Notes under the pieces: model-generated
Told to the model about the DNA's origin: nothing
Databases searched by the model: none
What the model saw: the letters and a program-made list of their open reading frames with translations, nothing else
Part shown: in pieces, positions 3,062-39,125 of the stretch
How positions within the stretch are numbered: the stretch's first letter is position 1
Layout: each line of letters opens with the position of its first letter
Position numbers and translations under genes: made by a program
Origin: a virus
Length of the DNA: 39,125 nucleotides
Reading direction: 5' to 3' (one strand)
Virus record (IMG/VR): IMGVR_UViG_3300031566_000156

Positions 3062-3082
3062 GTTGTGTATATACAGATGTTA
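3062..3082 (-). repeat. Boundary motif A, copy 2 (TAACATCTGTATATACACAAC)
   Basis: 20/21 match to the family consensus. Overlaps the 3' bracket arm of the 3090-3416 cassette. Confidence 0.7.
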
Positions 3083-3442
3083 TGCGCAATTAGAGCCACT
3101 TACTAGCAACGCCAATTATTCGAAACGTAAATTTAAGTATTTGTATAAATTCATTAATGTTAGTTATTTCATTCATATTTTCATAAATAGCATTAGCCAT
3201 AATTACCTCTTTCTCCGTTTCAAAAGCTAGGTTACTAATCATTTCAATAGTTGAATGATAATATTTAATCTCTCCTTTATCCCATTTTATTGATATATGA
3301 GGGTAATCATTTTTAAACGTGTCTGCAAAATGGCTTCTTACCATCATTCTCTCATTAAGGTTAAGACCTTTTTCTTCTAATAAATTCCATGCTTTGTCGT
3401 GAGTTTCTTGGTTCATAATTTTAAGAATAAAAGCGCATAACA
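3078..3442 (-). repeat. Inverted-repeat-bracketed gene cassette (arms TGTTATGCGC 3078-3087 / GCGCATAACA 3433-3442)
   Basis: Perfect 10-bp inverted repeat: one arm 2 nt after the stop, the other 17 nt before the ATG at 3416. Confidence 0.75.
3090..3416 (-). CDS. Hypothetical protein (108 aa; track starts at a TTG at 3443)
   Basis: The track start is a TTG inside the bracket arm. The ATG at 3416 (MNQETHDKAWNLLEEKG...) is more plausible. Confidence 0.6.
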   Translation of the reverse strand: MNQETHDKAWNLLEEKGLNLNERMMVRSHFADTFKNDYPHISIKWDKGEIKYYHSTIEMISNLAFETEKEVIMANAIYENMNEITNINEFIQILKFTFRIIGVASKWL

Positions 3443-3445
3443 ACA

Positions 3446-3549
3446 GCTATAAATAATAGCGGTTTTAGTGCCATACGCAAGGTTTGTAATATTAATTTAA
3501 TTCATCTCGTTTTGATAATTTGTGCTATTTATCCGCTACTATTCATAGC
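3446..3549 (-). promoter_or_regulatory. Long-stem RNA hairpin element R1 (17-bp stem, about 70-nt loop), paralog of 28170-28277 and 37940-38044
   Basis: Minus-strand arms GCUAUGAAUAGUAGCGG / CCGCUAUUAUUUAUAGC pair over 17 bp with two G-U pairs. On the plus strand those positions would be A-C mismatches. Confidence 0.55.
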
Positions 3550-3591
3550 CAAACGTTATACATAATCGTAATTTTTTTTAGTTCTTTAATA

Positions 3592-4200: not shown

Positions 4201-4221
4201 GTTGGGTATATACAGATGTTA
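4201..4221 (-). repeat. Boundary motif A, copy 3 (TAACATCTGTATATACCCAAC), followed by TGTTAATAAGTGTTAAAA box (4174-4191)
   Basis: Exact match to the consensus. The TAA inside it is the stop codon of 4219-4461. Confidence 0.7.
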
Positions 4222-4461
4222 CGCACAAGCTTTCTTGAAGCATTGTAGCCATAAATTACACCACATTATTTGTATGTCAATACTTATGTGGTAATCGCTA
4301 TGTCCAGTATTTTTAAATACTCTTAACATTATCCCAAAATCATCCCACTCCCAAATTATGCAAGGTTTACAAAGCCAGTGCATAACACGCAATATAAAAT
4401 ATTTTTGACGTGGTGGTTTTTTGAATAATCTACTATTTTTATACTTTTCTGCTAAATTCAT
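4219..4461 (-). CDS. Hypothetical protein (80 aa)
   Basis: ORF track. Confidence 0.5.
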   Translation of the reverse strand: MNLAEKYKNSRLFKKPPRQKYFILRVMHWLCKPCIIWEWDDFGIMLRVFKNTGHSDYHISIDIQIMWCNLWLQCFKKACA

Positions 4462-4719: not shown

Positions 4720-4748
4720 TATTCAAGTTTTATACCATTATTGTACTG

Positions 4749-4888: not shown

Positions 4889-4904
4889 GTTTTTGATTAA
4901 TAAT

Positions 4905-4933
4905 ATAAAAAAAACCTGTACTATGAATACAGG
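4905..4933 (-). terminator. Rho-independent terminator at the end of the late region
   Basis: The minus strand reads CCUGUA-UUCAUAG-UACAGG followed by U8 (plus-strand A-run 4907-4914). Confidence 0.8.
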
Positions 4934-4940
4934 CTTGTTA

Positions 4941-4963
4941 TAAAGCGGGAAACCACCCCCGCC
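4941..4963 (-). terminator. Second (upstream) terminator-like hairpin
   Basis: GCGGG-GGUGGUUU-CCCGC followed by UUUAU, 34 nt after the stop at 4997. Confidence 0.55.
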
Positions 4964-4996
4964 AAAATCAACTATGAAAACTATGAAAAATTTAAT

Positions 4997-5488
4997 CTAA
5001 AATATCATTCTTATTATGCTTTTTATGTCTACGATGTTAGATAATGTTCCTAAACCTAACAATATTAAACCAACCATCCATTTATATTTTTTTACTACCC
5101 GGATAAAGTCGGTATCTTCCTCTAACTTAGTTACTCGCCCATTTGTTTTTGTTACCTGAATTAATACTGATTCAAGTTTAGCAACAATTACTTCAAAGCC
5201 GCTATTCATTTGCACAATTACGCTGTCTAATCGCTGGTTAAATGAGTCATGTTCTAGTTCATCTCGTGTCTTTTCTTCCATAATAATTAATTGACTTTTC
5301 AATGATAATAATTCATTTATCAAAGAATTTATTTTTTTTATAATTATTTCTCTTTTTCTTCGTAAAAATGCCCTGTAAAAATACTCAAAAAAACTTAATC
5401 CTAAAAATATTCCTGCTAATATTTCGATTTTGAAAATCCATAAATACTTCCCAATAAAACTGCTATAATAAAAGACATCTGGAACCAT
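4997..5488 (-). CDS. Membrane-anchored coiled-coil protein (163 aa), lysis-associated candidate
   Basis: Hydrophobic N-terminal (ILAGIFLGLSFF) and C-terminal (WMVGLILLGLGTL) segments flank a coiled coil. It is the last late gene and overlaps the upstream gene by 73 nt. Confidence 0.6.
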   Translation of the reverse strand: MVPDVFYYSSFIGKYLWIFKIEILAGIFLGLSFFEYFYRAFLRRKREIIIKKINSLINELLSLKSQLIIMEEKTRDELEHDSFNQRLDSVIVQMNSGFEVIVAKLESVLIQVTKTNGRVTKLEEDTDFIRVVKKYKWMVGLILLGLGTLSNIVDIKSIIRMIF

Positions 5489-5808
5489 GCGCTACCACTA
5501 ATAAATAAAACACTGTTATTAATTTTTGCCATGTAGCAGATATTCTCATAAACCTCAATTAAATTCCAAATAATCAAACCAAATAATATCAACCTCGATG
5601 CAATTTTTTCTTTTTTTGTTAAAATGAATATAAATAAAGATGTTATTAATGTTGATGCACCTATCGCATTTGTTAAATATCCAACAGGTGCATTAAAGTT
5701 GACAACCTCATTAAATGGAACCTCAGCAAATAACATTAAAAAATATTCGCAAAAAACTGTAGTCGAAAATAATGTTAAAGCTATCCAATTAATTCTTAGA
5801 TAATTCAT
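5416..5808 (-). CDS. Multi-pass membrane protein (130 aa), holin-like candidate
   Basis: About four hydrophobic helices, positioned at the end of the late operon. No sequence family recognised. Confidence 0.6.
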   Translation of the reverse strand: MNYLRINWIALTLFSTTVFCEYFLMLFAEVPFNEVVNFNAPVGYLTNAIGASTLITSLFIFILTKKEKIASRLILFGLIIWNLIEVYENICYMAKINNSVLFISGSAWFQMSFIIAVLLGSIYGFSKSKY

Positions 5809-5983
5809 TTTTTAATTCTTTTATCTCATTCTCAAGAATTGCAATTTGTTTAATTAAATAAGTTACTATCTTATTATCTCGAATTTCCTTGCTTTCATTA
5901 ATATCAAATGTTTCACTTAATTCTAATGTTAGCTCTGTTGTTATTTTGGCCACGTTTGGTGGCAATTGCTCTACTCTTGGCAT
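5789..5983 (-). CDS. Hypothetical protein (64 aa)
   Basis: ORF track. Confidence 0.5.
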   Translation of the reverse strand: MPRVEQLPPNVAKITTELTLELSETFDINESKEIRDNKIVTYLIKQIAILENEIKELKNELSKN

Positions 5984-6036
5984 AATTCTATTTATTAATG
6001 ATGTTAGTGTGTAATTTGTTACCTATTGTAATTTAA

Positions 6037-6411
6037 TTATTTTTTTACTATTAAAGGTAGTTCATCTATATTAATATACTTATTTTTTTTCTTTGGCTTC
6101 CAAATTGCACGAATAATAATATTAGTTGCTATTCCAGACAAAGCAGTAAAAGCAAAATCTGAATAAGAAAAGTATCCAGTATTAAAAGTATCATAAAACT
6201 CCTTGCTTGCAGCTCCTGTAATTGCTATTAGTGAGGGTGCAATTGGGTTCATCTCTTTGTATGAATATTGGCCAATCGTATACATCCCACTTGAAAGAAC
6301 TATACCAGCTCCAACATGATAGTATTTATCTTGCTTTATTTGAGCGTTTAAAGTAAAAGAAAATAGAAATAATATAGTTATTAGTTTTTTCATAATTATG
6401 TTATTGTCCAA
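6037..6411 (-). CDS. Secreted/membrane protein with N-terminal signal peptide (124 aa)
   Basis: MKKLITILFLFSFTLNAQ is a typical Bacteroidota-style signal sequence. Confidence 0.6.
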   Translation of the reverse strand: MDNNIIMKKLITILFLFSFTLNAQIKQDKYYHVGAGIVLSSGMYTIGQYSYKEMNPIAPSLIAITGAASKEFYDTFNTGYFSYSDFAFTALSGIATNIIIRAIWKPKKKNKYINIDELPLIVKK

Positions 6412-15999: not shown

Positions 16000-16004
16000 A
16001 TTTA

Positions 16005-16059
16005 CAAAGTTATAATTAAAATCTATATATTCAAAATATCTTATAAATAAAATCTATAT
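16005..16059 (-). promoter_or_regulatory. Late promoter (head block)
   Basis: -7 TAACTTTG (16005-16012), 19-nt spacer, -33 TTTG (16032-16035). ATATAGAT boxes lie at 16021-16028 and 16052-16059. The ATG at 15999 is only 5 nt after the -7 box. Confidence 0.7.
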
Positions 16060-23069: not shown

Positions 23070-23074
23070 GTTTA

Positions 23075-23129
23075 CAAAGTTATAACTTTAATCTATATAT
23101 TTCAAACATTATATAGATTTTATCTATAT
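23075..23129 (-). promoter_or_regulatory. Late promoter (tail block)
   Basis: -7 TAACTTTG (23075-23082), 20-nt spacer, -33 TTTG (23103-23106). ATATAGAT-type boxes lie at 23091-23098, 23111-23118 (inverted) and 23122-23129. The first about 40 nt nearly match 15997-16036. Confidence 0.7.
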
Positions 23130-26482: not shown

Positions 26483-26692
26483 TATTTTTTTTAATTATTT
26501 AATATAGTTGTGGATATTTGGCATTTATGTTAATATTCCTAAAAATTCATTTAATAAATCTATCCGCAAATTTTACCATAAATATATTTTTCCCCCCCTC
26601 TTTACTTTTTTAAAAAGCATTTAAAAAGTTTCGTGCGTTTTTTATCATTTTTCGCTGTCATTTTATTTTTTTTGAAAACTAGAAAATGAACA

Positions 26693-27224
26693 CCCTATAA
26701 ATAGGGGCTTACAGAGGGGGCTAAATCAAAAATGTTCAGACTTTTTTGTCAAAGTTTAGGTTTTCAGAAATCGAAAATTTTTAAAAACTTTTTTTTCGTT
26801 TTCAAGGTTTCTAACTTTTCGAAAAAAGGTTTATACTTTTTCCTCGGTAAAAAGGTTTTGCGTTTTTGAAAATTTGCTTTATACTTTTTTGTCAAGAAAA
26901 AACTTTCCAACTTTTGAAAAAATACTTTTAACCTTGCGAGCAAAAATTTACTTTCTAAATTTTAAAAATTAGGTTTCAACTTTTTGGTTAAAATCTCAAA
27001 ACCTTTTTCTTAAAAAAATACTTTAAACTTTTTAGGCTAAAACTCAAAACCTAAATTTCGAAAAAAAGGTTTGTAATTTTTGTTCAACTTTCAGAAACCT
27101 AACTTTCGAAAAAAAACTTTCACACTTTTTACTTCCAGATAAAAACCTTTTTGAAAGAAAAAAAGTTTTGCATTTTTTGAAAAGTTAAAATCTCAAACCC
27201 TTATTTATAGGGGCTTACAGAGGG
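26693..27224. repeat. Iteron-like A/T-tract repeat array bracketed by direct repeats
   Basis: The flanks CCCTATAAATAGGGGCTTACAGAGGG (26693-26718) and CCCTTATTTATAGGGGCTTACAGAGGG (27198-27224) share 18 identical nt. Between them lie at least 12 degenerate GAAAAAA-NNTTT-NNN-ACTTTTT units plus two sharper sub-families. Confidence 0.85.
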
Positions 27225-27433
27225 TCACTTTTTAACTTTTTGCAAGTTTGTGCGATTTTTGCCGAAAAATCCTGAAACTTTTTATTTTTTTGAAAAAACT
27301 CAAAGAACGTTTTAATAATATATTTTTCGCTTAAAAAAGCTCAACCAATTCTTTCTTTCATCACAAATATACGAAATAAAATCTAACGCTTTCTTATTGT
27401 GTGATGCTAATAGTGGTTTAATGTATACCATAA

Positions 27434-27943: not shown

Positions 27944-28167
27944 TGTTATAGGGCATTTAAAGCCATTCTAACATCTTCCCAATATTTATGAGTTGATTTA
28001 TTTTGGTCAATAAACCAAGTTGGGTTTGAGTTCAATATTTCTTCTACTGCTATCAATGCGCACGTTTTTGCTGTTTTGCTATCAACATTACCATGTGTGT
28101 AGTACATTTTATTTGCTAATTCTACTGCTTTATCCTGTGGTGTCATAATTTAAAACGCCCTATAACA
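27944..28167 (-). repeat. Inverted-repeat-bracketed gene cassette (TGTTATAGGGC 27944-27954 / GCCCTATAACA 28157-28167)
   Basis: Perfect 11-bp inverted repeat. The 3' arm contains the stop codon, and the 5' arm lies 11 nt before the ATG at 28146. Confidence 0.75.
27946..28146 (-). CDS. Hypothetical protein (66 aa)
   Basis: ORF track. Confidence 0.6.
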   Translation of the reverse strand: MTPQDKAVELANKMYYTHGNVDSKTAKTCALIAVEEILNSNPTWFIDQNKSTHKYWEDVRMALNAL

Positions 28168-28169
28168 AT

Positions 28170-28277
28170 GTATATTATTCAGTGGCGTTATAGTGCTTAG
28201 TTTTAACCACTGTGCAGTCTTGCTAGTTTGTCGGTATGCGAAAAGTCCTGCAATCAATCGCCACCGAAATCATATAC
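28170..28277 (-). promoter_or_regulatory. Long-stem RNA hairpin element R2 (paralog of R1/R5)
   Basis: Arms GUAUAUGAUUUCGGUGGCG / CGCCACUGAAUAAUAUAC (about 17 pairs, one bulge, one mismatch). Followed by the 24-nt block 28280-28303, which is identical to 38047-38070. Confidence 0.5.
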
Positions 28278-28299
28278 TAAACGGTAGGCACAATAAAAA

Positions 28300-28485
28300 T
28301 TACTGCTTTCGTGCCATCATTCGGACGCATTCTTCTTTCATCATTTTTAGCCCACTTGCTTTCGTAACATCAGCAGAATAATCTTCACCAGACTTGTATT
28401 TTCGGATTATCTCTTTTTCAAGTTCTTTCAGTTCTTTATCGTACTCTAAAAACTGTTCGTGTATCATTTTAATTAATTCGCTCAT
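28300..28485 (-). CDS. Hypothetical protein (61 aa)
   Basis: ORF track. Confidence 0.55.
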   Translation of the reverse strand: MSELIKMIHEQFLEYDKELKELEKEIIRKYKSGEDYSADVTKASGLKMMKEECVRMMARKQ

Positions 28486-28517
28486 TTTATACCGTAATTT
28501 TAAAAGTGCCTAAATTA

Positions 28518-28733
28518 TTATGTCAATGATTTCCAATGGGTTGGCAATCTAAAATCTACCGTTCCACTAGCATTTTGTTTAATGCTAAAACTTCCATTTT
28601 CTCGCATTCTTCCAATACTTACCCATCCTTCACGTTCTGGAGCACCAACACCAGTTATTAAGTGCTGTAATTCTACCAACTCGTTTATAGGTGGTTTACT
28701 TTTTTCTAAACTTCTAAATCCGTTATATGCCAT
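28518..28733 (-). CDS. Hypothetical protein (71 aa), DUF551-like ending
   Basis: ORF track. The ...LPTHWKSL ending gives only a weak resemblance. Confidence 0.55.
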   Translation of the reverse strand: MAYNGFRSLEKSKPPINELVELQHLITGVGAPEREGWVSIGRMRENGSFSIKQNASGTVDFRLPTHWKSLT

Positions 28734-28753
28734 AATTTTTACTAATCATATAT

Positions 28754-29134
28754 TTATAGGGAATTTAAAAAACGCTGCGGAATAATCCAGTATCCATTTA
28801 ATGAAGTGCCATATAATTTTCTGCAATCATTAATCAACGTTCTATCAAATTTACCTTTAACAACCCTGCCATTTGGTAGTTTATATTTCTTTTTCGTCTG
28901 TACGATAATTGATAAATCATTTCCTAATGCATCAACTATAAATGGAGTTCCATAATCAATTAACGTATCTAAAGTTATTTTTGATTTATCCATTTTAAAA
29001 AACTCAATATCATCAATAGAATGCCCTTCTTTCATTGGCGCATTTGGGTTTTTATTCCAGTTCCTTTGAAAATCTTCATCTTTTAAAGTTTTCAAAAAAT
29101 CTATTAATTCTTTGTATTTTATTTCGTATTTCAT
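28754..29134 (-). CDS. Hypothetical protein (126 aa)
   Basis: ORF track. Confidence 0.6.
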   Translation of the reverse strand: MKYEIKYKELIDFLKTLKDEDFQRNWNKNPNAPMKEGHSIDDIEFFKMDKSKITLDTLIDYGTPFIVDALGNDLSIIVQTKKKYKLPNGRVVKGKFDRTLINDCRKLYGTSLNGYWIIPQRFLNSL

Positions 29135-29139
29135 AATTA

Positions 29140-29604
29140 TTATTTTACTTCAAACATTTTTCCTTTTGCCAATTCTTTTACTTTTCCCTTGTAAATTTCT
29201 ATTATTTCAATCATTAAAAATCTATCCTCTGGGAATTTTTCACGTTTTGAAATTAAGGCCAATTGATTTAATTTATCAAATCGCTCATCTCCTATTTTAT
29301 TTCTTAAATTAATAGCATAAGATGCAAAATCGTGTCCATAACAATTATCTTGCAATGATTGCAAATGAACATTATCTTCGTTAAATTCTAATGCTTTATA
29401 CTTACCAGCTGCAAAAAAATGACCTGCCTGAGCTTCTTTAGTTCCATATCTCAAAGGTTTCCCAGTCGCAATGCAATTCCCATGACCGTTATCATCTGTA
29501 TCTCTTAATCGGATAAACTTATGAAACCATTTTTTTGCTGTTCGATGCAAAGATGAATAACTTTTATTTTTATATTTATTTATTTGGTTTGTATTTAAAT
29601 TCAT
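29140..29604 (-). CDS. ninG: NinG/Rap-family recombination endonuclease (154 aa)
   Basis: CIATGKPL...AGHFFAAGKYKALEFNEDNVHLQSLQDNCYGH...NLRNKIGDERFDKL fits the lambda NinG family pattern. Confidence 0.7.
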   Translation of the reverse strand: MNLNTNQINKYKNKSYSSLHRTAKKWFHKFIRLRDTDDNGHGNCIATGKPLRYGTKEAQAGHFFAAGKYKALEFNEDNVHLQSLQDNCYGHDFASYAINLRNKIGDERFDKLNQLALISKREKFPEDRFLMIEIIEIYKGKVKELAKGKMFEVK

Positions 29605-29610
29605 AATTTT

Positions 29611-29820
29611 TTATTTAAACATTTCTAATATGTCATTATAACTCTGTTCAGATAGGGTATAATCAGTTCCATTTAACTTGTCTTCCAACCATTTAATATT
29701 AGGATGGTCTTTATTTTTACGAAAAATAACCCTAGCATTAACCCATCTTTCCCAGCATGCTAATTGTCTTATTGATACAGGGTCTTTGTAAATGTCAATT
29801 ACTATTTGCCGTTTTGCCAT
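29611..29820 (-). CDS. Hypothetical protein (69 aa)
   Basis: ORF track. Confidence 0.55.
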   Translation of the reverse strand: MAKRQIVIDIYKDPVSIRQLACWERWVNARVIFRKNKDHPNIKWLEDKLNGTDYTLSEQSYNDILEMFK

Positions 29821-30106
29821 TAATAATATGATTTATTTTATCAAGTTCTTTTTTTATAATATTGGCATATCCTTCCATCTGCCACGGTTCAATTAAACTT
29901 ATATCTAATTGCCTAATTGATTTGCAAATGTAAATTAATCTATCTGATTGATTCATTTGTTCATCTGCCATGATTAACAGTTCTATAAATGTCTTACCGT
30001 CTATTTCTGATTTTAGCGAATGCCTTGTCATCAATTTAAATAACAAAAATAAACATAAAGTAAGTAAACAAACAATAGTAATTAATAATAGTTGTTGTAG
30101 TTCCAT
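29795..30106 (-). CDS. Hypothetical membrane protein (103 aa)
   Basis: N-terminal helix LLLITIVCLLTLCLFLLF. The start lies downstream of motif A4. Confidence 0.55.
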   Translation of the reverse strand: MELQQLLLITIVCLLTLCLFLLFKLMTRHSLKSEIDGKTFIELLIMADEQMNQSDRLIYICKSIRQLDISLIEPWQMEGYANIIKKELDKINHIINGKTANSN

Positions 30107-30123
30107 TTTTTAATATTTAATGA

Positions 30124-30144
30124 GTTGGGTATATACATGTGTTA
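30124..30144 (-). repeat. Boundary motif A, copy 4 (TAACACATGTATATACCCAAC)
   Basis: 19/21 match to the consensus. The TAA inside it is the stop of 30142-30399. Confidence 0.65.
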
Positions 30145-30420
30145 TAAAGAATTGATGTTATCAATATATTCGTCAATTACCTTTATAACGTTTCCAAGTG
30201 CTTGAAATTTGCCAAATTCAAACATCTGCATAACTCTAATTTTAGGGTTGTCTTTTTCTTTTTCATACTTTTTATATTTTTCAGAATGTTCTTTCTTTTT
30301 TTGACATACATCATTTCTTAATCTCAATAGATATATTACACTATCTGGCGGCTCATGGTTTAATTCTAAAACTTCTGCCATTGCTAAATTACCATCCATA
30401 ATATAAACTCTTTATAACAC
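30139..30420 (-). repeat. Inverted-repeat-bracketed gene cassette (GTGTTATAAAGA 30139-30150 / TCTTTATAACAC 30409-30420)
   Basis: Perfect 12-bp inverted repeat. The 5' arm lies 9 nt before the ATG at 30399, and the 3' arm includes the last codons and the stop. Confidence 0.75.
30142..30399 (-). CDS. Hypothetical protein (85 aa)
   Basis: ORF track. Confidence 0.6.
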   Translation of the reverse strand: MDGNLAMAEVLELNHEPPDSVIYLLRLRNDVCQKKKEHSEKYKKYEKEKDNPKIRVMQMFEFGKFQALGNVIKVIDEYIDNINSL

Positions 30421-30494
30421 GGTGTAAAATGACCATGCTGTTAACAGCCGTTTTAATTTGAATCATTTTCGCTTGCACGGCATTTACACAAGCG

Positions 30495-30773
30495 TTAAAT
30501 AATCTTACTCATCTGGCCATCATCTACAAATATTCTGATAGGTGAAACATAAACATTTAATCCAATAATTGCATCATCATTATTAAATGCTATATTAGTT
30601 GTAACTTGTTCAGGATTTTTGTTTTCTTGAACTATTCCTATCCATTTATGATTTCCAGAATCAAAGCTACCATTATCCATTACAAAACCTGCTTTCCTAA
30701 ATGCTTTATCCATTAAATCATATAGAGTTGTTTCCTGTAACTTCCCATCTATATCTTTTATATATATTTCCAT
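30495..30773 (-). CDS. Hypothetical protein (92 aa)
   Basis: ORF track. Followed by a 95-nt GC-richer multi-stem spacer (30400-30494) that includes the palindrome GCTGTTAACAGC. Confidence 0.6.
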   Translation of the reverse strand: MEIYIKDIDGKLQETTLYDLMDKAFRKAGFVMDNGSFDSGNHKWIGIVQENKNPEQVTTNIAFNNDDAIIGLNVYVSPIRIFVDDGQMSKII

Positions 30774-30782
30774 AATATAAAT

Positions 30783-30998
30783 TTAATCATTTAAATTTAA
30801 GGAACCAATAAAATTATTATCTCTATCAGATTCATCTTTTATTTTACAGATTTCGGCAAGTTCCTTTTCGCCTTCATCTACTAAATTCTTTAATAACTTT
30901 ATTTTAGCTACTCTTCCATCATTTATTACCTGGAACTTGTATTGATGCCTTAATTCAGATAATGCTTTTAATTTTTGAATTATTATGTTATTTTCCAT
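30783..30998 (-). CDS. Hypothetical protein (71 aa)
   Basis: ORF track. Confidence 0.55.
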   Translation of the reverse strand: MENNIIIQKLKALSELRHQYKFQVINDGRVAKIKLLKNLVDEGEKELAEICKIKDESDRDNNFIGSLNLND

Positions 30999-31020
30999 TT
31001 TTTAATATTTTAATGTTAGG

Positions 31021-31041
31021 GTTGTGGACATATAGATGTTA
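31021..31041 (-). repeat. Boundary motif A, copy 5 (TAACATCTATATGTCCACAAC)
   Basis: 17/21 match to the consensus, in the same position relative to the stop and the next ATG. Confidence 0.6.
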
Positions 31042-31202
31042 ACGGTTATTTAAGATAGGTATTGCGCCAAATATAGCAGAAGCAGTTCCAATCAACATTA
31101 CCCACCAACATTTCATAAATACTTGCATTTGTGTTAATTCTGGATTCATTGTCCAATATACAAACGGTGTTAATATACATACTACAAAAACAACCGTTAA
31201 CA
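31037..31202 (-). repeat. Inverted repeat TGTTAACGGTT (31037-31047) / AACCGTTAACA (31192-31202)
   Basis: Perfect 11-bp inverted repeat. It is homologous to the 32105/32388 pair with one compensated A-T to G-C change. Here the 5' arm lies inside the predicted ORF (codons 15-18). Confidence 0.6.
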
Positions 31203-31245
31203 AAATGTATAGCGCATTGCGCAAGCCTTTTAATAATTTTTTCAT
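31039..31245 (-). CDS. Small membrane protein (68 aa, two hydrophobic helices)
   Basis: ALYILLTVVFVVCILTPFVYW and WWVMLIGTASAIFGAIPIL. Preferred over the overlapping 31046-31312 ORF. Confidence 0.5.
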   Translation of the reverse strand: MKKLLKGLRNALYILLTVVFVVCILTPFVYWTMNPELTQMQVFMKCWWVMLIGTASAIFGAIPILNNR

Positions 31246-31289
31246 AATATTTAAAGTTTTTAATTATTAATAAAATTTCTACGTATTCG

Positions 31290-31308
31290 ATGGCGCAACG
31301 AACGCCAT
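31290..31308 (-). other. Perfect hairpin AUGGCG-N7-CGCCAU after the stop of 31319-31579
   Basis: 6-bp GC-rich stem with a 7-nt loop and no adjacent U-run. It could be a terminator or stability element; function unknown. Confidence 0.4.
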
Positions 31309-31318
31309 ACATAAATCG

Positions 31319-31579
31319 TTAATCATTTATATATAAATTAATAATATCATTTTCATTAAAAAATATAGACCATATCATTAATGCCATGCTTAATTTAACC
31401 AATAAACTAAATGCATAACTAAATGACAAGTCAGAACAATTACCAATTACTTTAATTATTGATTGTTCTGGTTGCTCAGTTTTTAAGGATAAAAATTTTA
31501 CATTTATTTTATTTTCATTCATGGCAATTTTAACCTTCAATGCAAGGTATTTAATTATTGTTATTTGTTTTCCTGTCAT
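31319..31579 (-). CDS. Hypothetical protein (86 aa)
   Basis: ORF track. Its start overlaps the stop of the upstream 59-aa ORF (ATGA). Confidence 0.55.
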   Translation of the reverse strand: MTGKQITIIKYLALKVKIAMNENKINVKFLSLKTEQPEQSIIKVIGNCSDLSFSYAFSLLVKLSMALMIWSIFFNENDIINLYIND

Positions 31580-31755
31580 ATCCCTATGTTTTTAACATTT
31601 ATTATTTCATAATTTATCATCTTTGGGTGTTTGACTCTTAGATGAGTTGTAAGAACTTTTTTCGCATGCGTTAAGTCTATCACTTTATCAATGTTAATTG
31701 ATTTGTCTATGCGCTTGTTTTTGTACTTTAAACGGTAATTAATTGATAGTTTCAT
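31576..31755 (-). CDS. Hypothetical small basic protein (59 aa)
   Basis: Hand-translated: MKLSINYRLKYKNKRIDKSINIDKVIDLTHAKKVLTTHLRVKHPKMINYEIINVKNIGI. ATGA overlap with the next gene; one residue below the track cut-off. Confidence 0.6.
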   Translation of the reverse strand: MKLSINYRLKYKNKRIDKSINIDKVIDLTHAKKVLTTHLRVKHPKMINYEIINVKNIGI

Positions 31756-31767
31756 ATCTATAATTTA

Positions 31768-31962
31768 TTAATCAATAAATTTTGTACTCTTTACCTGAAT
31801 TACTATTTCATCCCTTACATTGTCTATTACATCTAACTGTATAGACTCTTGCTCTTCTATTGGAAGTTCTTTAAACTCTTTATATGTCATTCCAAAACAG
31901 TCTTCAATGTCAATTACATCTACCGTTAATTGTTCCCAGCTTATTATAAATTTTGTCTTCAT
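31768..31962 (-). CDS. Hypothetical protein (64 aa; track extends to 31986)
   Basis: The start at 31962 (MKTKFIISWEQ...) is chosen because the 34-nt leader upstream matches the leader of 32495-32731. Confidence 0.6.
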   Translation of the reverse strand: MKTKFIISWEQLTVDVIDIEDCFGMTYKEFKELPIEEQESIQLDVIDNVRDEIVIQVKSTKFID

Positions 31963-31999
31963 TTCATTTCCTTTTAAATTAAACATTAATTGTTTGTGA

Positions 32000-32079
32000 T
32001 GTAAAGATACAGCCTTTCGGAACTGGAAACTATGATATTTATCATGTTTTTGAATTGTTTGTGTTAATAAGTGTTAAAA
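32000..32079 (-). promoter_or_regulatory. Early promoter-operator cassette, copy 2 (74/80 identical to 1820-1899)
   Basis: Contains -7-like TATCTTTA (32002-32009), ATGATATTTATCAT (32032-32045) and TGTTAATAAGTGTTAAAA (32062-32079). Confidence 0.65.
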
Positions 32080-32088
32080 TTATTTTAA

Positions 32089-32109
32089 GTTGGGGATATA
32101 CAGATGTTA
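32089..32109 (-). repeat. Boundary motif A, copy 6 (TAACATCTGTATATCCCCAAC)
   Basis: 20/21 match to the consensus, immediately 3' of the bracket arm. Confidence 0.7.
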
Positions 32110-32398
32110 GCGGTTATTGGTGAGATATTAAACCACCTGCGTTATTTGGGTCTAAATACAAGCGTTCACCTTTTTTAAAATCTGAGGTGTTAACATCCGT
32201 AATAACATGCTCAATTTGTGGTTTCATTCTTAATAACCTCCTAATCCATCCACATTTTAATTTGCATCTACCTACCTGTAGTACGAAGTCATTTTCATCT
32301 TTTATATAGCAAAGTTCGCCCTCTTTAAATGCTATTCCTGTATTGTTTTTAACCTTAATTAACTTTTCCATATCTATAAGTAATAACAACCGCTAACA
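32105..32398 (-). repeat. Inverted-repeat-bracketed gene cassette (TGTTAGCGGTT 32105-32115 / AACCGCTAACA 32388-32398)
   Basis: Perfect 11-bp inverted repeat. A third copy, GTTAGCGGT (32482-32490), can pair with the 5' arm instead. Confidence 0.75.
32114..32371 (-). CDS. Hypothetical protein (85 aa; track starts at a TTG at 32389)
   Basis: The track start is a TTG inside the bracket arm. The ATG at 32371 (MEKLIKVKNN...) is preferred. Confidence 0.6.
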   Translation of the reverse strand: MEKLIKVKNNTGIAFKEGELCYIKDENDFVLQVGRCKLKCGWIRRLLRMKPQIEHVITDVNTSDFKKGERLYLDPNNAGGLISHQ

Positions 32399-32494
32399 AG
32401 CGGTCATAGTTAATAAAGCCAATTAAGTTTTGTTCGTTGTAGGTTGCAGTGTGGGTGGCTTTACTAACCATACCGCCAGCCGTTAGCGGTAATG

Positions 32495-36669: not shown

Positions 36670-37193
36670 ATAGGATAATGTATTTGTTCGTAATTGTAAA
36701 CTTTGTCAGATAAGGCCTTTATTTCATCTCCATAATCATTCCCATAATTTATCTCCATATCACAGAGATAGGCTAATCTTTTTAAGGACTTTTTGTACTC
36801 AACAAATTTTAAAATATTTATAAAAATTGATTCTACCTGAAATCTTGTTTGTTTGTCATTATCAATTAATTCTTTTATTCGTCTCCATCCGTAATAAACT
36901 GTTGAACGGTCATACTTTCTATCTCCTTTGCTAATAAATTCACCGATTTTTTTCTGGCTTAATTTGGTTAATTCGAGACAAAAATAAGATATGTACTTTC
37001 GAGCTAAAACAATTTCTTTCCTTCTTGACATTGATTTTAGCAAATCGATATGTATGTTTAATGCTGCCAGGACAAAATTTTCAATTTCATCATATTTTAA
37101 AATTGGGATATATCTATCTAAATTCATAGTTTTTTTTATTTTAAAAAATATACGTTGATATGGTGTTGTGTGTATATAAGTGTTGTAGTGCAT
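36666..37193 (-). CDS. DnaA-domain-IV-like (Bac_DnaA_C-type HTH) DNA-binding protein (175 aa)
   Basis: RRKEIVLARKYISYFCLELTKLSQKKIGEFI...DRSTVYYGWRRIKELIDND parallels the DnaA C-terminal pattern R..I..ARQIAMYL...T..S...IG..FG.RDHSTV.HA..KI. An alternative start is the ATG at 37127. Confidence 0.6.
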   Translation of the reverse strand: MHYNTYIHTTPYQRIFFKIKKTMNLDRYIPILKYDEIENFVLAALNIHIDLLKSMSRRKEIVLARKYISYFCLELTKLSQKKIGEFISKGDRKYDRSTVYYGWRRIKELIDNDKQTRFQVESIFINILKFVEYKKSLKRLAYLCDMEINYGNDYGDEIKALSDKVYNYEQIHYPI

Positions 37194-37493
37194 TTAGAAT
37201 CCAATCATCGTTGAATCTACTGGTGGGTAGTACCACATCCATTTAGTTTCGTTCTCTGGCTCGTCATAGTCAACTAAGGTGTCAGTGTGGAAACGCCACT
37301 GCATACTTTCAAAGCAAAAATAAGCCACCCCTTGCACGTTATTTTCGTCAATTATGCAAACATCTTCACTAAATGTAATATCGTCTTTACTTTGTTTAGG
37401 CTTATTTTTTTCGGGGTCAAATAAACGCACTACAACATTATGTAAAGTGCATGGCTGTTCGGTTTTTGAATTTTTTGTACTCATATCAATCAT
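37194..37493 (-). CDS. Hypothetical protein (99 aa)
   Basis: ORF track. Confidence 0.6.
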   Translation of the reverse strand: MIDMSTKNSKTEQPCTLHNVVVRLFDPEKNKPKQSKDDITFSEDVCIIDENNVQGVAYFCFESMQWRFHTDTLVDYDEPENETKWMWYYPPVDSTMIGF

Positions 37494-37552
37494 TATTTAA
37501 GTTTTAAAACTATGTAGCTTTTATTAGGCAGCCACGACACCATACATTTAAC

Positions 37553-37935
37553 GTTAGCCGTAATTAAAAGAAACATTCCACCAATGAATCAACGGCAGGT
37601 TTTAATACTTTAAAATATTCAGCTTTTTCGGGTCTTATATCGCCTTCTTCAATTCCATACCAAAACAATATTGGCAAAGGTATTTCTAAGTAATTTGCAA
37701 TTTTTTGTAATACTTCGGTGCTTGGTTGTTTTTGGTCATTCTCAATTTGGCTCAAATAGGTTTGAGTAATGCCAATATTTTGAGCAAATAATTCTTGAAT
37801 TTGTCGAGCTTTATTTACTCTAAGTCTTTTAATTGATTGTCCTAATTTCATATAATTATCGTTTTAAATTTAACCAAAGGTAATATATATTTCTAATAAT
37901 ACAAATTTAATTGATAGATATTAACTACGGCTAAC
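37553..37935 (-). repeat. Inverted-repeat-bracketed gene cassette (GTTAGCCGTA 37553-37562 / TACGGCTAAC 37926-37935)
   Basis: Perfect 10-bp inverted repeat. The 3' arm lies 1 nt after the stop, and the 5' arm lies 75 nt before the ATG at 37851. Confidence 0.7.
37564..37851 (-). CDS. XRE/Cro-CI-type HTH transcriptional regulator (95 aa)
   Basis: QELFAQNIGITQTYLSQIENDQKQPSTEVLQKIANYL is a canonical HTH_3 pattern. Confidence 0.85.
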   Translation of the reverse strand: MKLGQSIKRLRVNKARQIQELFAQNIGITQTYLSQIENDQKQPSTEVLQKIANYLEIPLPILFWYGIEEGDIRPEKAEYFKVLKPAVDSLVECFF

Positions 37936-37939
37936 AATG

Positions 37940-38044
37940 TATAAAAATAATAGCCGTTTCGGTGGTAATTTTAAAGTATCGTGCAACGTTGTAAAGTCCA
38001 GTAGGTTGATAGTTTTTCGCTCGCAATCGGCTACTATTCTTATA
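37940..38044 (-). promoter_or_regulatory. Long-stem RNA hairpin element R5 (paralog of R1/R2)
   Basis: Arms UAUAAGAAUAGUAGCCG / CGGCUAUUAUUUUUAUA form 17 bp, with G-U pairs at the same two positions as in R1. Confidence 0.55.
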
Positions 38045-38085
38045 CCAACGGTAGGCACAATAAAAATTACTTGCCTTTCAGTATC

Positions 38086-38495: not shown

Positions 38496-38993
38496 TTATT
38501 TTTTTGCGTATGTGAATACTCTATCTCTCGTTTTTAAATTTATAATAGCTAATCCAGTTATTATTCCTTTTTCAACCTTTATTGCTTCTACTTCAAATTT
38601 GTCAAAAGTCGAATATTTATCACCTCGTTTTTCAATCTTCATCTTATCTTTATTGATGTAGATAAATGGAGCTGTATAAAGTTCCCGACCTATCCCCCAA
38701 TTAAAACAAGCACGTTTAAACGAATCGCTTGCGAGTCCTTTTGCCTTTTCTGTGAAGCTTTCAGCTCCAGTATCTTCTTTTTGTACCCATTCCTTTTTTT
38801 CAGTACAGTAAATCGAAACTATACAATTTGCATTGTCTTTTAAATGATGTCTTTGCCAGTGCATATTGCCTACTGTTTCATCAAGTATGTTCATATCACA
38901 TCTTGCATTCTTATAAAGCAAAAATGATGCACCTTTTTCGGTTATAGATGCAACTCTTATTTCAATTTCATCTGGTTTTAAATCTCTAAACAT
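38496..38993 (-). CDS. Rad52/Sak-like single-strand annealing protein (165 aa)
   Basis: ARCDMNILDETVGNMHWQ and KGLASDSFKRACFNWGIGRELY match the conserved Rad52-family pattern (..drLd..fG...Wq ; ..sDAlKRA...fGiGr.LY). Confidence 0.7.
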   Translation of the reverse strand: MFRDLKPDEIEIRVASITEKGASFLLYKNARCDMNILDETVGNMHWQRHHLKDNANCIVSIYCTEKKEWVQKEDTGAESFTEKAKGLASDSFKRACFNWGIGRELYTAPFIYINKDKMKIEKRGDKYSTFDKFEVEAIKVEKGIITGLAIINLKTRDRVFTYAKK

Positions 38994-38998
38994 AGTTG

Positions 38999-39125
38999 TA
39001 TTTTTATTGGTTATTTATTTCATCTATTAAGAGGGCTAATTGCTCTCTAATGTCTTGTAATTTTATTCCCGGTTCACCTGATAATTTAAATAATTCAGCT
39101 AATAAGTCGGTAACTATATCAGCAT
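38999..39125. repeat. Terminal direct repeat, copy 2 (identical to 1-127); carries a truncated second copy of the 6-182 ORF
   Basis: Exact match to 1-127; the window ends inside the repeat. Confidence 0.95.

Follow-up and report, generated by a model that had tools for sequence, protein, structure and literature searches.

Why should single small genes in the early/accessory region of a Bacteroidota phage be bracketed by inverted repeats that differ from one gene to the next while remaining complementary within each? In the window (the whole 39,125-nt stretch of phage DNA that was analysed), the first-pass annotation had quoted six pairs of arms, all of which lie where it placed them and are perfect complements: four between 27 and 32 kb (27944-54/28157-67, 30139-50/30409-20, 31037-47/31192-202 and 32105-15/32388-98) and two elsewhere (3078-87/3433-42 and 37553-62/37926-35). 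Beyond these six we found TGTTGTAGTGC at 37181-91/37426-36, and TGTTATGCAC/GTGCGTAACA at 4376-87/4217-28 with one U:G pair inside. A shuffled control, which that annotation had proposed and which was run for the GTTA+N6 form of the repeat, gave 0.60 on average and never more than 3 over 300 dinucleotide shuffles, against seven perfect inverted repeats no more than 900 nt apart in the real sequence. Circular ascertainment was avoided by picking downstream arms solely by the conserved box on their right (TAACA-TCTGTATAT...). In real relatives, a perfect GTTA+N6 partner lies no more than 1.5 kb upstream of 10 of 20 sites picked in this way, and a further six have a partner with a single mismatch at the innermost N6 base, so that 16 of 20 are partnered overall; the chance expectation is about 0.1-0.5% per site. 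The earlier observation is real, and stronger than first claimed.

On the sense (minus) strand a cassette reads leader hairpin, TGTTA-N6-G-TTT and ATG, followed by the gene, its stop codon and AAA-T-N6'-TAAC(A/G). Together the arms make up a potential 15-bp helix with a conserved G:U and a 6-nt gene-specific core; the complementarity first described as 10-12 bp is genuine, though longer by the G:U and three Watson-Crick pairs further in. The arms and boxes concerned are as follows.

28157..28167, minus strand: 5' arm of the 28-kb cassette, TGTTA-TAGGGC, the helix running on as G-TTT to ~28153
27944..27954, minus strand: its 3' arm, GCCCTA-TAACA, over the last two codons and stop of gene 27946-28146
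30409..30420, minus strand: 5' arm of the 30-kb cassette, GTGTTA-TAAAGA
30139..30150, minus strand: its 3' arm, TCTTTA-TAACAC, over the stop of gene 30142-30399
31192..31202, minus strand: 5' arm of the 31-kb cassette, TGTTA-ACGGTT, within the 88-aa ORF 31046-31312 and 11 nt upstream of an in-frame ATG at 31180
31037..31047, minus strand: its 3' arm, AACCGT-TAACA; similarity to the relative L065 restarts exactly at TAACA
32388..32398, minus strand: 5' arm of the 32-kb cassette, TGTTA-GCGGTT
32105..32115, minus strand: its 3' arm, AACCGC-TAACA, at the stop of gene 32114-32371; 100% identity to L065 begins exactly at TAACA, the preceding cassette being different
3433..3442, minus strand: 5' arm of the 3-kb cassette, TGTTA-TGCGC
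3078..3087, minus strand: its 3' arm, GCGCA-TAACA, 2 nt past the stop of gene 3090-3416
37926..37936, minus strand: 5' arm of the 37.9-kb cassette, TGTTA-GCCGTA; the HTH_3 gene 37564-37851 has its ATG 74 nt downstream
37552..37562, minus strand: its 3' arm, TACGGC-TAACG
37426..37436, minus strand: 5' arm of a variant cassette, TGTTG-TAGTGC, within ORF 37194-37493
37181..37191, minus strand: its 3' arm, GCACTA-CAACA, followed by box-A-like sequence
4376..4387, minus strand: 5' arm of the 4.2-kb cassette, TGTTA-TGCAC, within ORF 4219-4461
4217..4228, minus strand: its 3' arm, GTGCG-TAACA, in which TAA is the stop codon
32089..32109, minus strand: box A, TAACATCTGTATATCCCCAAC
31021-41, 30124-44, 4201-21, 3062-82 and 2159-79: other copies of box A

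The placement described earlier, at the stop codon and shortly before the start, holds: 3' arms overlap the stop codon or lie within 2 nt of it, and 5' arms end 9-16 nt before the ATG in the window cassettes, apart from the 74 nt at the HTH gene (37851) and three arms (31202, 4387 and 37436) that lie inside the longest ORF instead. Some 5' arms elsewhere also fall within real-looking ORFs, for example in the lipoprotein signal peptide in L002. In the general layout 5-25 nt separate TGTTA-N6-G-TTT from the ATG; the closing helix was scored as ending 0-15 nt from the ATG, and its 3' strand covers the stop codon.

Covariation of the cores, claimed from the window, extends well beyond it. Across 42 cassettes from 17 loci in related phages and Bacteroidota genomes the N6 core takes 35 different forms and is always complementary within the cassette. 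The inward positions, which played no role in pair detection, are a G:U in 32 of the 42 and then Watson-Crick pairs in 39, 41 and 36 of the 42 respectively; in three cassettes of L070 they show a double-sided change, GTT/AAT to GTA/TAT. Sense-strand wobble variants occur at 4387/4217 (TGCAC/GTGCG) and in the L092 orthologue of the 28-kb cassette (TAGGGC/GCTCTA, again a G:U pair), the N6' of this cassette being conserved in orthologues, while TAACG variants give a U:G at the foot. Arms are perfect or G:U-only, which holds also for distant phages and for orthologues that share 77% amino-acid identity. The cassettes of phages all share one orientation, and six in a row is the longest array (L001 and L091 carry arrays of five and six). 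Many small accessory genes of this phage and its relatives are portable cassettes with pairable ends.

This covariation bears directly on whether the elements are only regulatory linkers of the PeSL type, with genes shuffled by ordinary homologous recombination and the bracketing repeats a historical by-product. Under this explanation the complementarity would be left from neighbouring hairpins that once shared a lineage-specific basal stem, and the closing helix would be functionless. Mosaic exchange bounded by conserved intergenic elements, the annealing protein of the phage and published precedent (PMC2839356, PMC4122927) all speak for it, as does the hairpin at 32394-32485, whose N6 has a partner both across the hairpin and across the gene. 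However, that hairpin is the only such case seen: elsewhere the N6 cores flanking a hairpin are not mutually complementary, matches being centred on 1-2 of 6, as if random. Dozens of donor lineages would be needed, each with its own genome-wide N6, and separated arms should have decayed rather than remaining perfect or G:U-only. The 31-kb and 32-kb cassettes are also informative: their pairs had been called homologous, which is true of the arm sequences, whereas BLASTP detected no similarity between the enclosed genes, and the change by which the two cassettes differ is compensated across the gene, not across the linker. The likeness to PeSL elements drawn earlier also does not extend to membership, given their definition as promoter plus terminator. 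We regard this explanation as unlikely.

Simple compensatory drift does not easily fit the pattern of exchange. N6 is much more variable than the sequence flanking it on both sides; between L065 and L072, and between L001 and L076, inner flanks and box are alike while N6 and ORF differ, and the window phage and L066 have hairpin, both arms and inner flanks in common around unrelated ORFs.

The constant (T)GTTA/TAAC(A) is, as proposed, the outer end of the repeat, but it is at the same time the foot of an intergenic hairpin. These hairpins, 60-190 nt long with feet TAAC(G) and (T)GTTA, covary: an alignment of 27 sequences has 84% of its cells paired (62% in shuffles) and scores 0.55 for covariation (0.18 in shuffles, 0/500 of which reach 0.55; 0.12-0.19 in slid registers), 14 of 15 predicted pairs show double-sided changes, and two G:U pairs at fixed positions are conserved in 16 and 20 of the 27. 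In the window the leaders are as follows.

28163..28286, minus strand: 28-kb leader hairpin, -31.9 kcal/mol, z -2.1; left foot degenerate, TACCG (TAACG in the 94% identical L091 copy)
30415..30497, minus strand: 30-kb leader hairpin, TAACG...TGTTA; sense -21.0 versus antisense -15.6 kcal/mol
31198..31321, minus strand: 31-kb leader hairpin, sense -30.0 versus antisense -18.7 kcal/mol; the left foot GATTAACG holds the upstream gene's stop codon, and L065 similarity stops at ...GATTAACG
32394..32485, minus strand: 32-kb leader hairpin, -31.8 kcal/mol, z -4.9, 0/200 shuffles as stable; left foot and flank (32482-32490) read ACCGCTAAC on the sense strand
3438..3558, minus strand: 3-kb leader hairpin, TAACG-TTT-GGCTATGAATAGTAGCGG...CCGCTATTATTTATAGC-TGT-TGTTA; -30.9 kcal/mol, z -4.1, 0/200; its left foot is the exact end of L072 similarity
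37932..38053, minus strand: 37.9-kb leader hairpin, -26.2 kcal/mol, z -2.1; left foot degenerate, TACCG

The strongest single leaders thus reach z -4.1 and -4.9. All 17 of 17 hairpins fold better on the sense strand, by 6.5 kcal/mol on average, an advantage that is partly compositional, as the sense strand is richer in G than in C, and random 120-nt windows favour it likewise (105/150, mean 2.8 kcal/mol). The hairpins are not terminators, because they have no U-tract; a canonical terminator lies elsewhere in the phage, at 4912-4936.

The RNA stem that the first-pass annotation predicted to close each gene is part of the MFE and of the centroid structure alike in two of three whole-cassette folds, namely the 28-kb cassette (28157-67/27944-54) and the 30-kb cassette, in which a 23-nt inverted repeat, 87% complementary, gives a long closing helix. 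In the 32-kb cassette the fold prefers the leader hairpin. Here a third copy of the arm had been taken for an alternative partner and hence a switch. The sequence is present at 32482-90, not as a free arm but as left foot of ACCGC-TAACG...TGTTA-GCGGT, the leader hairpin. With its N6 included, this hairpin competes with the closing helix and outcompetes it in the predicted fold, so that a toggle is plausible; it would then be a general property of TAAC/GTTA feet rather than special to this cassette.

On these grounds we favour, at a probability of roughly 45%, a reading in which leader hairpin and gene-closing helix both operate as RNA in a polycistronic early transcript, with hairpins and boxes serving as linkers for recombination by the phage annealing protein. 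The region would then be an assembly of portable single-gene modules, each with a structured 5' leader and a 15-bp long-range helix formed by 5' UGUUA-N6-G-UUU right after the hairpin and 3' AAA-U-N6'-UAAC(A/G) at the stop codon. The invariant UGUUA could pair with UAAC across the leader to make the hairpin foot or, after transcription of the gene, with UAAC behind the stop codon, where the gene-specific N6 and G:U would contribute ten extra pairs and the gene would become a closed loop. We infer that this helix forms in vivo, where the closed form would mask the stretch just upstream of the start codon as well as the stop codon, and may gate translation, yield a processed, end-protected monocistronic mRNA, or both. 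Gene-specific cores would let each cassette pair with itself within a multi-cassette transcript.

Exchange among relatives is directly visible. Close relatives with 92-100% identical flanks differ by whole cassettes, present, absent or replaced, and in such alignments, which the first-pass annotation had proposed as a check, similarity stops at the TAAC/GTTA feet. At one locus the window phage has one cassette between the same flanks that hold four in L072, and the window phage and L091 carry the module [TAACG-hairpin-TGTTA-N6-gene-N6'] in differing contexts, with similarity ending just outside both TAAC. Hairpins, cassettes and ORFs each behave as a separate unit of exchange. The cargo includes DNA methyltransferases, and a Chitinophagales contig has an isolated copy among housekeeping genes with its gene in the opposite orientation. 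Under the favoured reading, the conserved feet, hairpin stems and box A would double as short homologies by which the Erf/Rad52-like annealing protein (38496-38993) and the NinG nuclease (29140-29604) encoded by the phage could swap these units between related genomes. Box A is a 21-mer identical to a hairpin right arm in reverse reading, and in other genomes is the left arm of a short hairpin.

Could the repeats instead be the inverted ends of a transposon or MITE-like element, or the sites at which an invertible DNA segment flips? Box+TGTTA+N6 and N6'+TAACA+box do resemble repeats of ~26-30 bp, and the isolated, oppositely oriented Chitinophagales copy would fit. The outermost bases of transposon ends are usually the best conserved, and here, within a cassette, the inner N6 agrees better than the outer parts do. 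In addition, outer flanks are not direct repeats and no target-site duplication is visible, the phage cassettes all share an orientation, and no transposase or invertase was detected among the window ORFs scanned; we consider this origin very improbable.

A more substantial alternative, which we hold to be possible if somewhat doubtful, is that the TAAC...GTTA hairpins are attC-like recombination sites, folded as single-stranded DNA, of a mirror-image integron whose recombinase is supplied in trans by the host or another element. A free circular cassette would carry one whole site with the basal helix AAA-T-N6'-TAAC...GTTA-N6-G-TTT, and strand exchange at a TAAC foot would insert [hairpin-N6-gene-N6'] beside another TAAC. 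Such an insertion splits the basal helix, and therefore its halves bracket the gene; complementarity would be a footprint of mobility and a requirement for it, not for expression. Integron logic is matched point by point: AAC/GTT feet are conserved, structure is kept while sequence is not, the first cassette bases are complementary to the inverse core at the other cassette end, and N6 cores on either side of one hairpin are unpaired. The arrays, the one-to-four difference at a single locus, the module shared with L091 and the methyltransferase cargo, as in published phage CALINs (PMC9892861), are likewise consistent with it. The TAAC/GTTA feet, hairpin and cassette-specific complementary ends are the expected residue of folded-site recombination and were counted against an RNA role, as were N6 variability, the reversed polarity of L081 (a chromosomal copy whose enclosed gene lies on the strand opposite to the G:U polarity, tolerable for a DNA-level mechanism) and the 5' arms inside ORFs.

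Further points in its favour are qualified. P12002L_attC1 of Polaribacter phage P12002L (Qi et al. 2023, Table S3) belongs to the hairpin family, and canonical attC there also has TAAC...GTTA feet; but only HattCI predicted this site, the Infernal attC model did not, and it was the single one of six without verified recombination with IntI1 (PMC9892861). In a Runella MAG one cassette abuts an IntI/Xer-like tyrosine recombinase (226 bits on TIGR02249; 221.9 on NF040815, cutoff 220), which is below the integron-integrase cutoff of 265 and without relatives in viral contigs. Integrons are very rare in Bacteroidetes (PMC9024848), and, as noted earlier for integrases, no site-specific recombinase was detected among the window ORFs scanned. 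The complementarity spans 15 bp against ~7 bp for the R box, a single crossover point does not predict separate exchange of hairpins, cassettes and ORFs, and box A copies and hairpin halves are often several genes apart in the window. Moreover, a gene is inherited together with the hairpin upstream of it (window phage versus L091, L099 versus L100, window phage versus L066), opposite to an integron cassette and as expected of a 5' leader.

Rfam holds no match to this architecture, and our literature searches found no description of it as such; the earlier interpretation is partly supported. Its comparison with integrons is apt in logic, the phage cassettes mirroring the layout of integron cassettes, but the image is reversed, the scanned window ORFs include no integrase, and membership is not established; one family member called attC, by HattCI alone, failed the IntI1 assay (PMC9892861). 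For the closed gene loop, the nearest parallels are found in rRNA processing stalks and in the icaR mRNA, where pairing of the 5' and 3' UTRs spans the gene and is known to govern both translation and cleavage by RNase III (PMC3868564).

Every arm sequence quoted in the first-pass annotation, which described small early genes bracketed by covarying GTTA/TAAC inverted repeats, is present in the window where it was placed, and two further pairs were found. The pairs are as follows:

27944/28157, sense strand minus: arms of the 28-kb cassette
30139/30409, sense strand minus: arms of the 30-kb cassette
31037/31192, sense strand minus: arms of the 31-kb cassette
32105/32388, sense strand minus: arms of the 32-kb cassette
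3078/3433, sense strand minus: arms of the 3-kb cassette
37553/37926, sense strand minus: arms of the 37.9-kb cassette
37181/37426, sense strand minus: additional arm pair
4217/4376, sense strand minus: additional arm pair, with one U:G

The proposed enrichment of such repeats also holds against shuffled controls: there are seven perfect GTTA+N6 inverted repeats (at most 900 nt apart) compared with a mean of 0.6 and a maximum of three in 300 dinucleotide shuffles. On the sense strand, the 5' side of each cassette gene reads ...TATAC-NNN-TGTTA-N6-G-TTT(T), with the ATG following after 5-25 nt, and the 3' side reads (T)AAAT-N6'-TAAC(A/G), where N6 is a gene-specific core of six nucleotides. Complementarity between the arms spans 15 bp, comprising five constant pairs, six variable pairs, a conserved G:U and three A-U pairs; the 5' strand borders on the start region, and the 3' one overlaps the stop codon. 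A conserved box of 16 nt, TCTGTATATAC.CAAC (box A; six copies), is usually what comes next after the 3' arm in the window.

Relatives were found by scanning public collections for box A and by following orthologues of one cassette protein, giving 17 informative loci (L numbers below) from IMG/VR, JGI, ENA and Logan metagenomes and from Bacteroidota MAGs (Runella, Cytophagales, Chitinophagales). Loci L063/71/73, L064/69, L078, L080, L083, L084 and L087-89 were set aside as chance motif matches in GC-richer coding DNA, and a helicase-anchored search of viral contigs returned one close fragment (L003) along with 58 distant loci that did not help with the cassette question. The 17 loci hold 42 cassettes with 35 different N6 cores, and N6 and N6' are complementary across the gene in all 42. 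Immediately inward of N6 there is a G:U pair in 32 of the 42, followed by three positions with Watson-Crick pairs in 39, 41 and 36 cassettes, respectively. Pairing is kept by compensatory change, as is evident from the diversity of cores, from G:U variants on the sense strand (in the L092 orthologue and at 4387/4217) and from L070, where the inner GTT/AAT has become GTA/TAT, a double-sided change, in all three cassettes; the notion that closing-helix complementarity is purely a 'historical by-product' fits poorly. When sites were ascertained by box A alone, the predicted upstream partner was found at 16 of 20 (ten perfect, six with one mismatch in the innermost N6 position), and N6 complementarity across a hairpin is at an apparently random level (mode 1-2 of 6). 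Five (L001) and six (L091) cassettes follow one another, separated by hairpins of roughly 75-125 nt. Their cargo includes DNA methyltransferases, an HTH regulator, a lipoprotein, small membrane peptides, a SEC-C-motif protein and many ORFans; no convincing empty cassettes, with arms but without a gene, were seen.

The 100-150 nt ahead of each 5' arm are predicted to fold into a long hairpin with TAAC(G)/(T)GTTA feet (z-scores down to -4.9), and are not spacer. Members of this family measure 63-191 nt and are often split, with solo halves (box A) several genes apart. An alignment of the lower 32 nt per arm of 27 hairpins yields 15 consensus pairs; double-sided changes are seen in 14, and two G:U pairs are kept at fixed positions. 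The paired fraction (84% of cells, 62% in shuffles) is inflated because the sequences were chosen as hairpin-forming; this does not apply to the fixed wobble positions or to the register-specific covariation, which scores 0.55 against 0.18 in shuffles (none of 500 reaches 0.55) and 0.12-0.19 in slid registers. In all 17 hairpins compared, the sense strand folds better than the antisense. Random windows favour sense too, albeit more weakly, because the sense strand has more G than C, and this control weakens folding energy as proof of RNA; the strand bias backs a sense-strand fold only modestly.

The genome that carries these elements has all of its long ORFs on the minus strand. They encode terminase, portal, protease/capsid and tape-measure proteins, a DnaB helicase, a replication initiator, an Erf/Rad52-like annealing protein, NinG, a DnaA-C HTH protein, a DNA methylase and an HTH_3 regulator. 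Relatives of the portal protein, in phages of Bacteroides, Parabacteroides, Cellulophaga, Flavobacterium and Elizabethkingia, are all at most 28% identical, the closest portal and helicase relatives reach only 28-38% identity, and a megablast search with 12 kb of the window found no match among 50,697 phage records, GenBank having no near-identical phage. For the host, the motif matches point towards Cytophagales, Chitinophagales or Flavobacteriia. Bases 1-127 exactly repeat 38999-39125, and these identical ends point to circular assembly of a siphovirus genome 38,998 bp long; the overlap is probably a k-mer artefact, not a biological terminal repeat. Searches of the whole window on both strands against Rfam 15 gave no match at E<=1, and a scan for tRNA and tmRNA found none.

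Might the hairpins or box A be conventional transcription signals? Lacking a U-tract, the hairpins are unlikely to be terminators. Box A was rejected as a promoter for a phage RNA polymerase or for the host: no RNA polymerase or sigma factor was found among the window ORFs scanned, the box has no sigma70 or TAnnTTTG match, and it is a hairpin arm. More generally, neither hairpins nor box A contain a sigma70-type promoter above chance, and TAnnTTTG is likewise absent from both, though it occurs elsewhere in the window. The signals that do have a conventional appearance are these:

23070-23090 and 16000-16020, minus strand: late-operon upstream element TTATAACTTTGTAAA(C/T)ATG, containing the Bacteroidota -7 consensus TAnnTTTG directly before the start codon
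1851-1899, 4174-4191, 4801-4816, 4874-4889, 32031-32079 and 230-245, minus strand: early control block of about 90 nt, made up of TTTTAACACTTATTAACA, about 15 nt, the palindrome CATGAYAWWYRTCATR and then TATCTTTACA
4912-4936, minus strand: canonical intrinsic terminator, an 11-bp stem followed by T8, with a GC-rich hairpin before it, in the 277-nt gap ahead of the gene at 4504-4719

The late genes have TAACTTTG upstream, which we take to be the Bacteroidota -7 promoter motif, and the abutment of TAnnTTTG on late start codons implies leaderless or near-leaderless late mRNAs. The early control block (its 18-mer occurs three times and its palindrome at five sites, against about zero expected by chance) looks from its sequence like an operator plus a Bacteroidota-type -7 element, and the HTH_3 protein (37564-37851) is possibly its binder; at 1851-1899, 4174-4191 and 32031-32079 it is separate from the hairpins and box A. 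The terminator, which contrasts with the hairpins, marks a transcription-unit boundary within the accessory region.

Two observations on control regions stand apart from the cassettes. The related phage with the five-cassette array, L001 (IMGVR_UViG_3300027985_001168), encodes its own sigma-70-family factor, with regions 1.2, 2 and 4, at 1243-2055 as oriented; none was found in the window. Between the early and late genes of the window, 951 nt without ORFs (26483-27433) are crowded with repeats of AAAACCTTTTT / AAAAAGGTTT(T) and similar 10-12-mers, both direct and inverted, and could be an origin, an iteron region or a regulatory region.

By standard inference, covariation of the arms means that they pair, and on this basis our main reading is that the covarying bracket is an RNA helix, to which we assign a probability of roughly 45%. 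All genes lie on one strand, the complementary segments flank each cassette gene on that strand, and their pairing is predicted. The wobble variants fall on the sense strand, the upstream hairpin behaves like a leader belonging to the gene, and the placement of the two arms at the start region and the stop codon fits as well. The constant UGUUA would then have to pair in two settings, at the hairpin foot and in the closing helix, and this double requirement would explain why UGUUA is invariant while N6 varies freely. Such helices would operate in a phylum, the Bacteroidota, that generally makes little use of Shine-Dalgarno-led translation initiation.

Folding of whole cassettes bears out part of what was first predicted, namely a stem closing each gene into a loop. 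It appears in both the MFE and the centroid structure in two of three folds; in the third, that of the 32-kb cassette, the leader hairpin competes and wins. The 'third copy' of the arm at 32482-90, which had suggested a switch, does exist, but is the left foot of that same leader hairpin. Only in the 32-kb cassette does the left-foot flank also match N6, with ACCGCTAAC as a direct repeat on either side of the unit of hairpin plus gene. A simple terminator scan found no terminator-like site within the 28-, 30- and 31-kb cassettes, and flagged a local ACCGCT/AGCGGT hairpin at 32386-32407. Within the 30-kb cassette gene a second GTTATAAAG (30180-30189, minus strand) lies 45 nt 5' of the 3' arm; the two could form a local 9-bp hairpin, giving the 3' arm an alternative partner. 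Separately, a conserved 30-33-mer, GAAAG(G)CA(A)GTAATTTTTATTGTGCC-TACCGTT, lies ahead of two leader hairpins that differ from each other (~28282-28311 and 38049-38078, minus strand), and the same ATTGTGCC-TAACG flank is found in L092; it may be the leftover 3' arm of a lost cassette, or some other signal.

The distribution of similarity between genomes bears on how these units move. L065, L066 and L072, three loci from relatives, are 92-100% identical to the window in patches, and, as had been anticipated, the differences break at the arms, with similarity repeatedly starting or stopping at the hairpin feet. It begins at TAACATCTG behind different cassettes in five comparisons and stops after TAAC(G) ahead of different hairpins in four; one hairpin is an isolated block of similarity limited by TAAC and GTTA. 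At one locus, four cassettes in L072 stand against a single one in the window, the flanks being the same. The stretch TAACG-hairpin-TGTTA-TAGGGC-gene-GCCCTA is common to the window and the six-cassette locus L091, yet both outer flanks differ, and the same cassette stands behind four different hairpins in five genomes, the junction falling exactly between GTTA and N6. On comparison of the sequences, exchange units also appear finer than whole cassettes: the window and L066 share the hairpin, both arms and inner flanks around unrelated ORFs, and in L065 versus L072 and L001 versus L076 the inner flanks and box are common while N6 and ORF differ. Cargo also occurs outside cassettes. Other phages have the 28-kb cassette gene free of arms, in one instance placed between terminase and portal genes: in four JGI loci (L094-L097; 33000775xx/772xx/773xx, gene at ~1814-2014 or 2437-2637) an orthologue 71% identical in protein, with neither arms nor hairpin, lies between the large terminase and portal of an unrelated phage, so the gene moves between modules and phage types. 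Sharp block edges alone are no proof of site-specific cutting, because any border between a conserved element and gene-specific sequence should give rise to them, and under the RNA-helix reading the Erf-like protein and NinG would suffice for linker-mediated shuffling.

The main alternative, which we consider possible though somewhat less probable, is that the elements are folded DNA recombination sites in an integron-cassette layout; the two readings are not mutually exclusive. The layout is indeed that of integron cassettes, in which the first bases of a cassette are likewise complementary to the inverse core at its far end, the two flanks of one hairpin are unmatched, the number and identity of cassettes vary between close relatives and methyltransferases are among the cargo. 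Like attC sites and CALINs, the hairpins are imperfect palindromes between co-oriented small genes, their ...TAAC/GTTA... feet resembling R''/R' AAC/GTT, and structure is conserved rather than sequence. CALINs, which are attC clusters without an integrase, have been reported in virulent phages (PMC9892861), and one site described there belongs to the present hairpin family. Intergenic inspection of Polaribacter phage P12002L (L075, NC_028924; 29990-30070, 38030-38100, 38860-39140, minus strand) reveals TAACG...TGTTA hairpins between methyltransferase genes, one of which is the published P12002L_attC1 (Qi et al. 2023, PMC9892861). A strict filter found no exact GTTA-N6 pairs in this phage; its N6 arms are near-perfect, with one mismatch between GTTAGTTGC and GCTACTAAC at gp55. 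However, P12002L_attC1 was predicted by HattCI only and not by Infernal, and was the sole site of six without verified IntI1 recombination (PMC9892861).

In the form of the site the comparison is mixed: by definition attC sites are imperfect palindromes of roughly 57-141 bp with RYYYAAC/GTTRRRY ends, and the hairpins have the AAC/GTT but often not the RYYY/RRRY (CTATAAC, GTTATAG). Other features set the elements apart from integrons. An integron attC lies 3' of its ORF and is inherited with it, whereas here the linkage polarity is reversed and the co-inherited hairpin is 5' (the window versus L091, L099 versus L100, and the window versus L066 share the upstream hairpin but differ downstream). 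Complementary ends extend over 15 bp with a conserved G:T(U), compared with ~7 bp in integrons; hairpins split into solo halves several genes apart are also unlike integrons, and there is no attI or Pc platform here, nor an IntI among the window ORFs scanned. Integrons are, moreover, nearly absent from Bacteroidetes (PMC9024848). The absence of an encoded integrase, already remarked upon, was upheld: a search of 33 of the window's ORFs with Pfam and/or PHROGs gave no Phage_integrase match, nor any other site-specific recombinase. The integron likeness originally drawn thus survives for topology and complementary ends, and fails for attC position and IntI.

One cassette does lie beside an integrase-like gene. 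In a Runella MAG (L076, JAIXPV010000258.1, ~3400-5620), a complete cassette, TAACG-hairpin-TGTTA-GCAGTT...GACTGC-TAACA-box A, adjoins the 3' end of a convergent 538-aa tyrosine recombinase (IntI/Xer-like, with two N-terminal repeats) that scores 226 bits on TIGR02249 (integron integrase), below the cutoff of 265, and 221.9 on NF040815 (cutoff 220). No relatives of this recombinase were found in viral contigs. Another MAG example is a single cassette in a Chitinophagales genome (L081, JBBSPP010000142.1, oriented 5795-6410), on a bacterial chromosomal contig with purL-like and atpD-like genes; its arms, TGTTA-GCTCTC / GAGAGC-TAACA, are accompanied by box A, and the enclosed gene, for a 187-aa membrane protein, is opposite to the usual G:U polarity. 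An unlikely but more specific proposal is that in Bacteroidota and their lytic phages the TAAC/GTTA hairpins serve as recombination sites for a cassette system not described before, integron-like yet mirror-imaged, in which the site would lie 5' of the gene, the sense strand would fold, a 6-nt cassette-specific 'address' would pair with the far end to set the cassette limit, and the enzyme would be other than canonical IntI. For such a guide-like, nucleic-acid-programmed boundary, the pairing of guide and cleavage site in IS200/IS605 elements offers a loose parallel.

Transposition in the usual sense fits poorly. A TIR transposon, MITE or inverton would also have inverted repeats at its ends, but no transposase or invertase was found among the window ORFs scanned, no target-site duplications or direct-repeat flanks are visible around hairpins or cassettes, and all phage cassettes are co-oriented with their genes, the single reversed copy being that in the Chitinophagales chromosome. 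REP/BIME and the Correia elements of Neisseria are likewise intergenic hairpin families with conserved feet that are present in mRNA and may act as RNase III or stability elements and recombination hotspots. Unlike the phage hairpins, they are not known to have a gene-specific complement beyond the neighbouring gene, and the phage hairpins have no associated RAYT or transposase.

If the RNA-helix reading is true, the element is a modular, context-independent device for expression and insulation, whose leader hairpin and self-addressed closing helix allow any small gene to be fitted into a long early transcript of the phage; it would also be a new structured RNA family beyond Rfam, and a rare case of bacterial mRNAs in which helices systematically span genes. 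Should the DNA reading hold, integron-type cassette capture extends to the lytic phages of a phylum with almost no known integrons; site polarity would differ and the recombinase would be one not yet known, which bears on the unsolved origin of gene cassettes and their sites. Under either, TAAC and GTTA are precise joints for the shuffling of accessory genes (methyltransferases, regulators, membrane peptides), and the element is a sequence signature by which such cassettes can easily be sought in metagenomes. Modular shuffling of phage genes has been inferred since the modular-evolution hypothesis; we found no description in the literature of gene-by-gene covarying closing helices in phage cassettes.

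Among known systems, the PeSL of T4-type phages (PMC2839356, PMC4122927) are alike in that conserved intergenic stem-loop elements flank small ORFans in plastic early regions, that these elements delimit the insertions, deletions and replacements by which close relatives differ (here the window versus L065, L066 and L072, with shared blocks 92-100% identical), and that phage recombination machinery is invoked in place of a dedicated recombinase. By definition, though, PeSL comprise a sigma70-type early promoter and a short G/C stem-loop terminator, in direct repeats (PMC2839356, PMC4122927), whereas the phage cassettes have long hairpins, no recognisable promoter and no U-tract, and each gene is bracketed by a gene-specific covarying inverted repeat, a feature not described for PeSL in those two accounts. 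A further trait of PeSL is the formation of mini-circles through recombination of the elements on either side. Of the PeSL likeness first suggested, the linker-bounded indels and replacements remain. The predicted fold recalls the RNase III processing stalks of rRNA operons and the 5'-UTR/3'-UTR pairing of icaR in S. aureus (PMC3868564): arms on each side of one gene form a helix that loops the gene out (here by prediction), the 5' strand lies at the translation initiation region and covariation maintains the pairing. Those are single loci, whereas in the phage cassettes one design, its outer 5 bp constant and its 6-bp core variable, recurs across dozens of unrelated genes, and the predicted helix is coupled to a leader hairpin with the same foot. 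Each comparison lacks a defining feature, be it the promoter and apparently the terminator of PeSL or the attC position and integrase of integrons, and that with RNA concerns the predicted fold; taken together, they suggest an element that is PeSL-like in its shuffling, integron-like in its topology and rRNA-stalk/icaR-like in its modelled fold.
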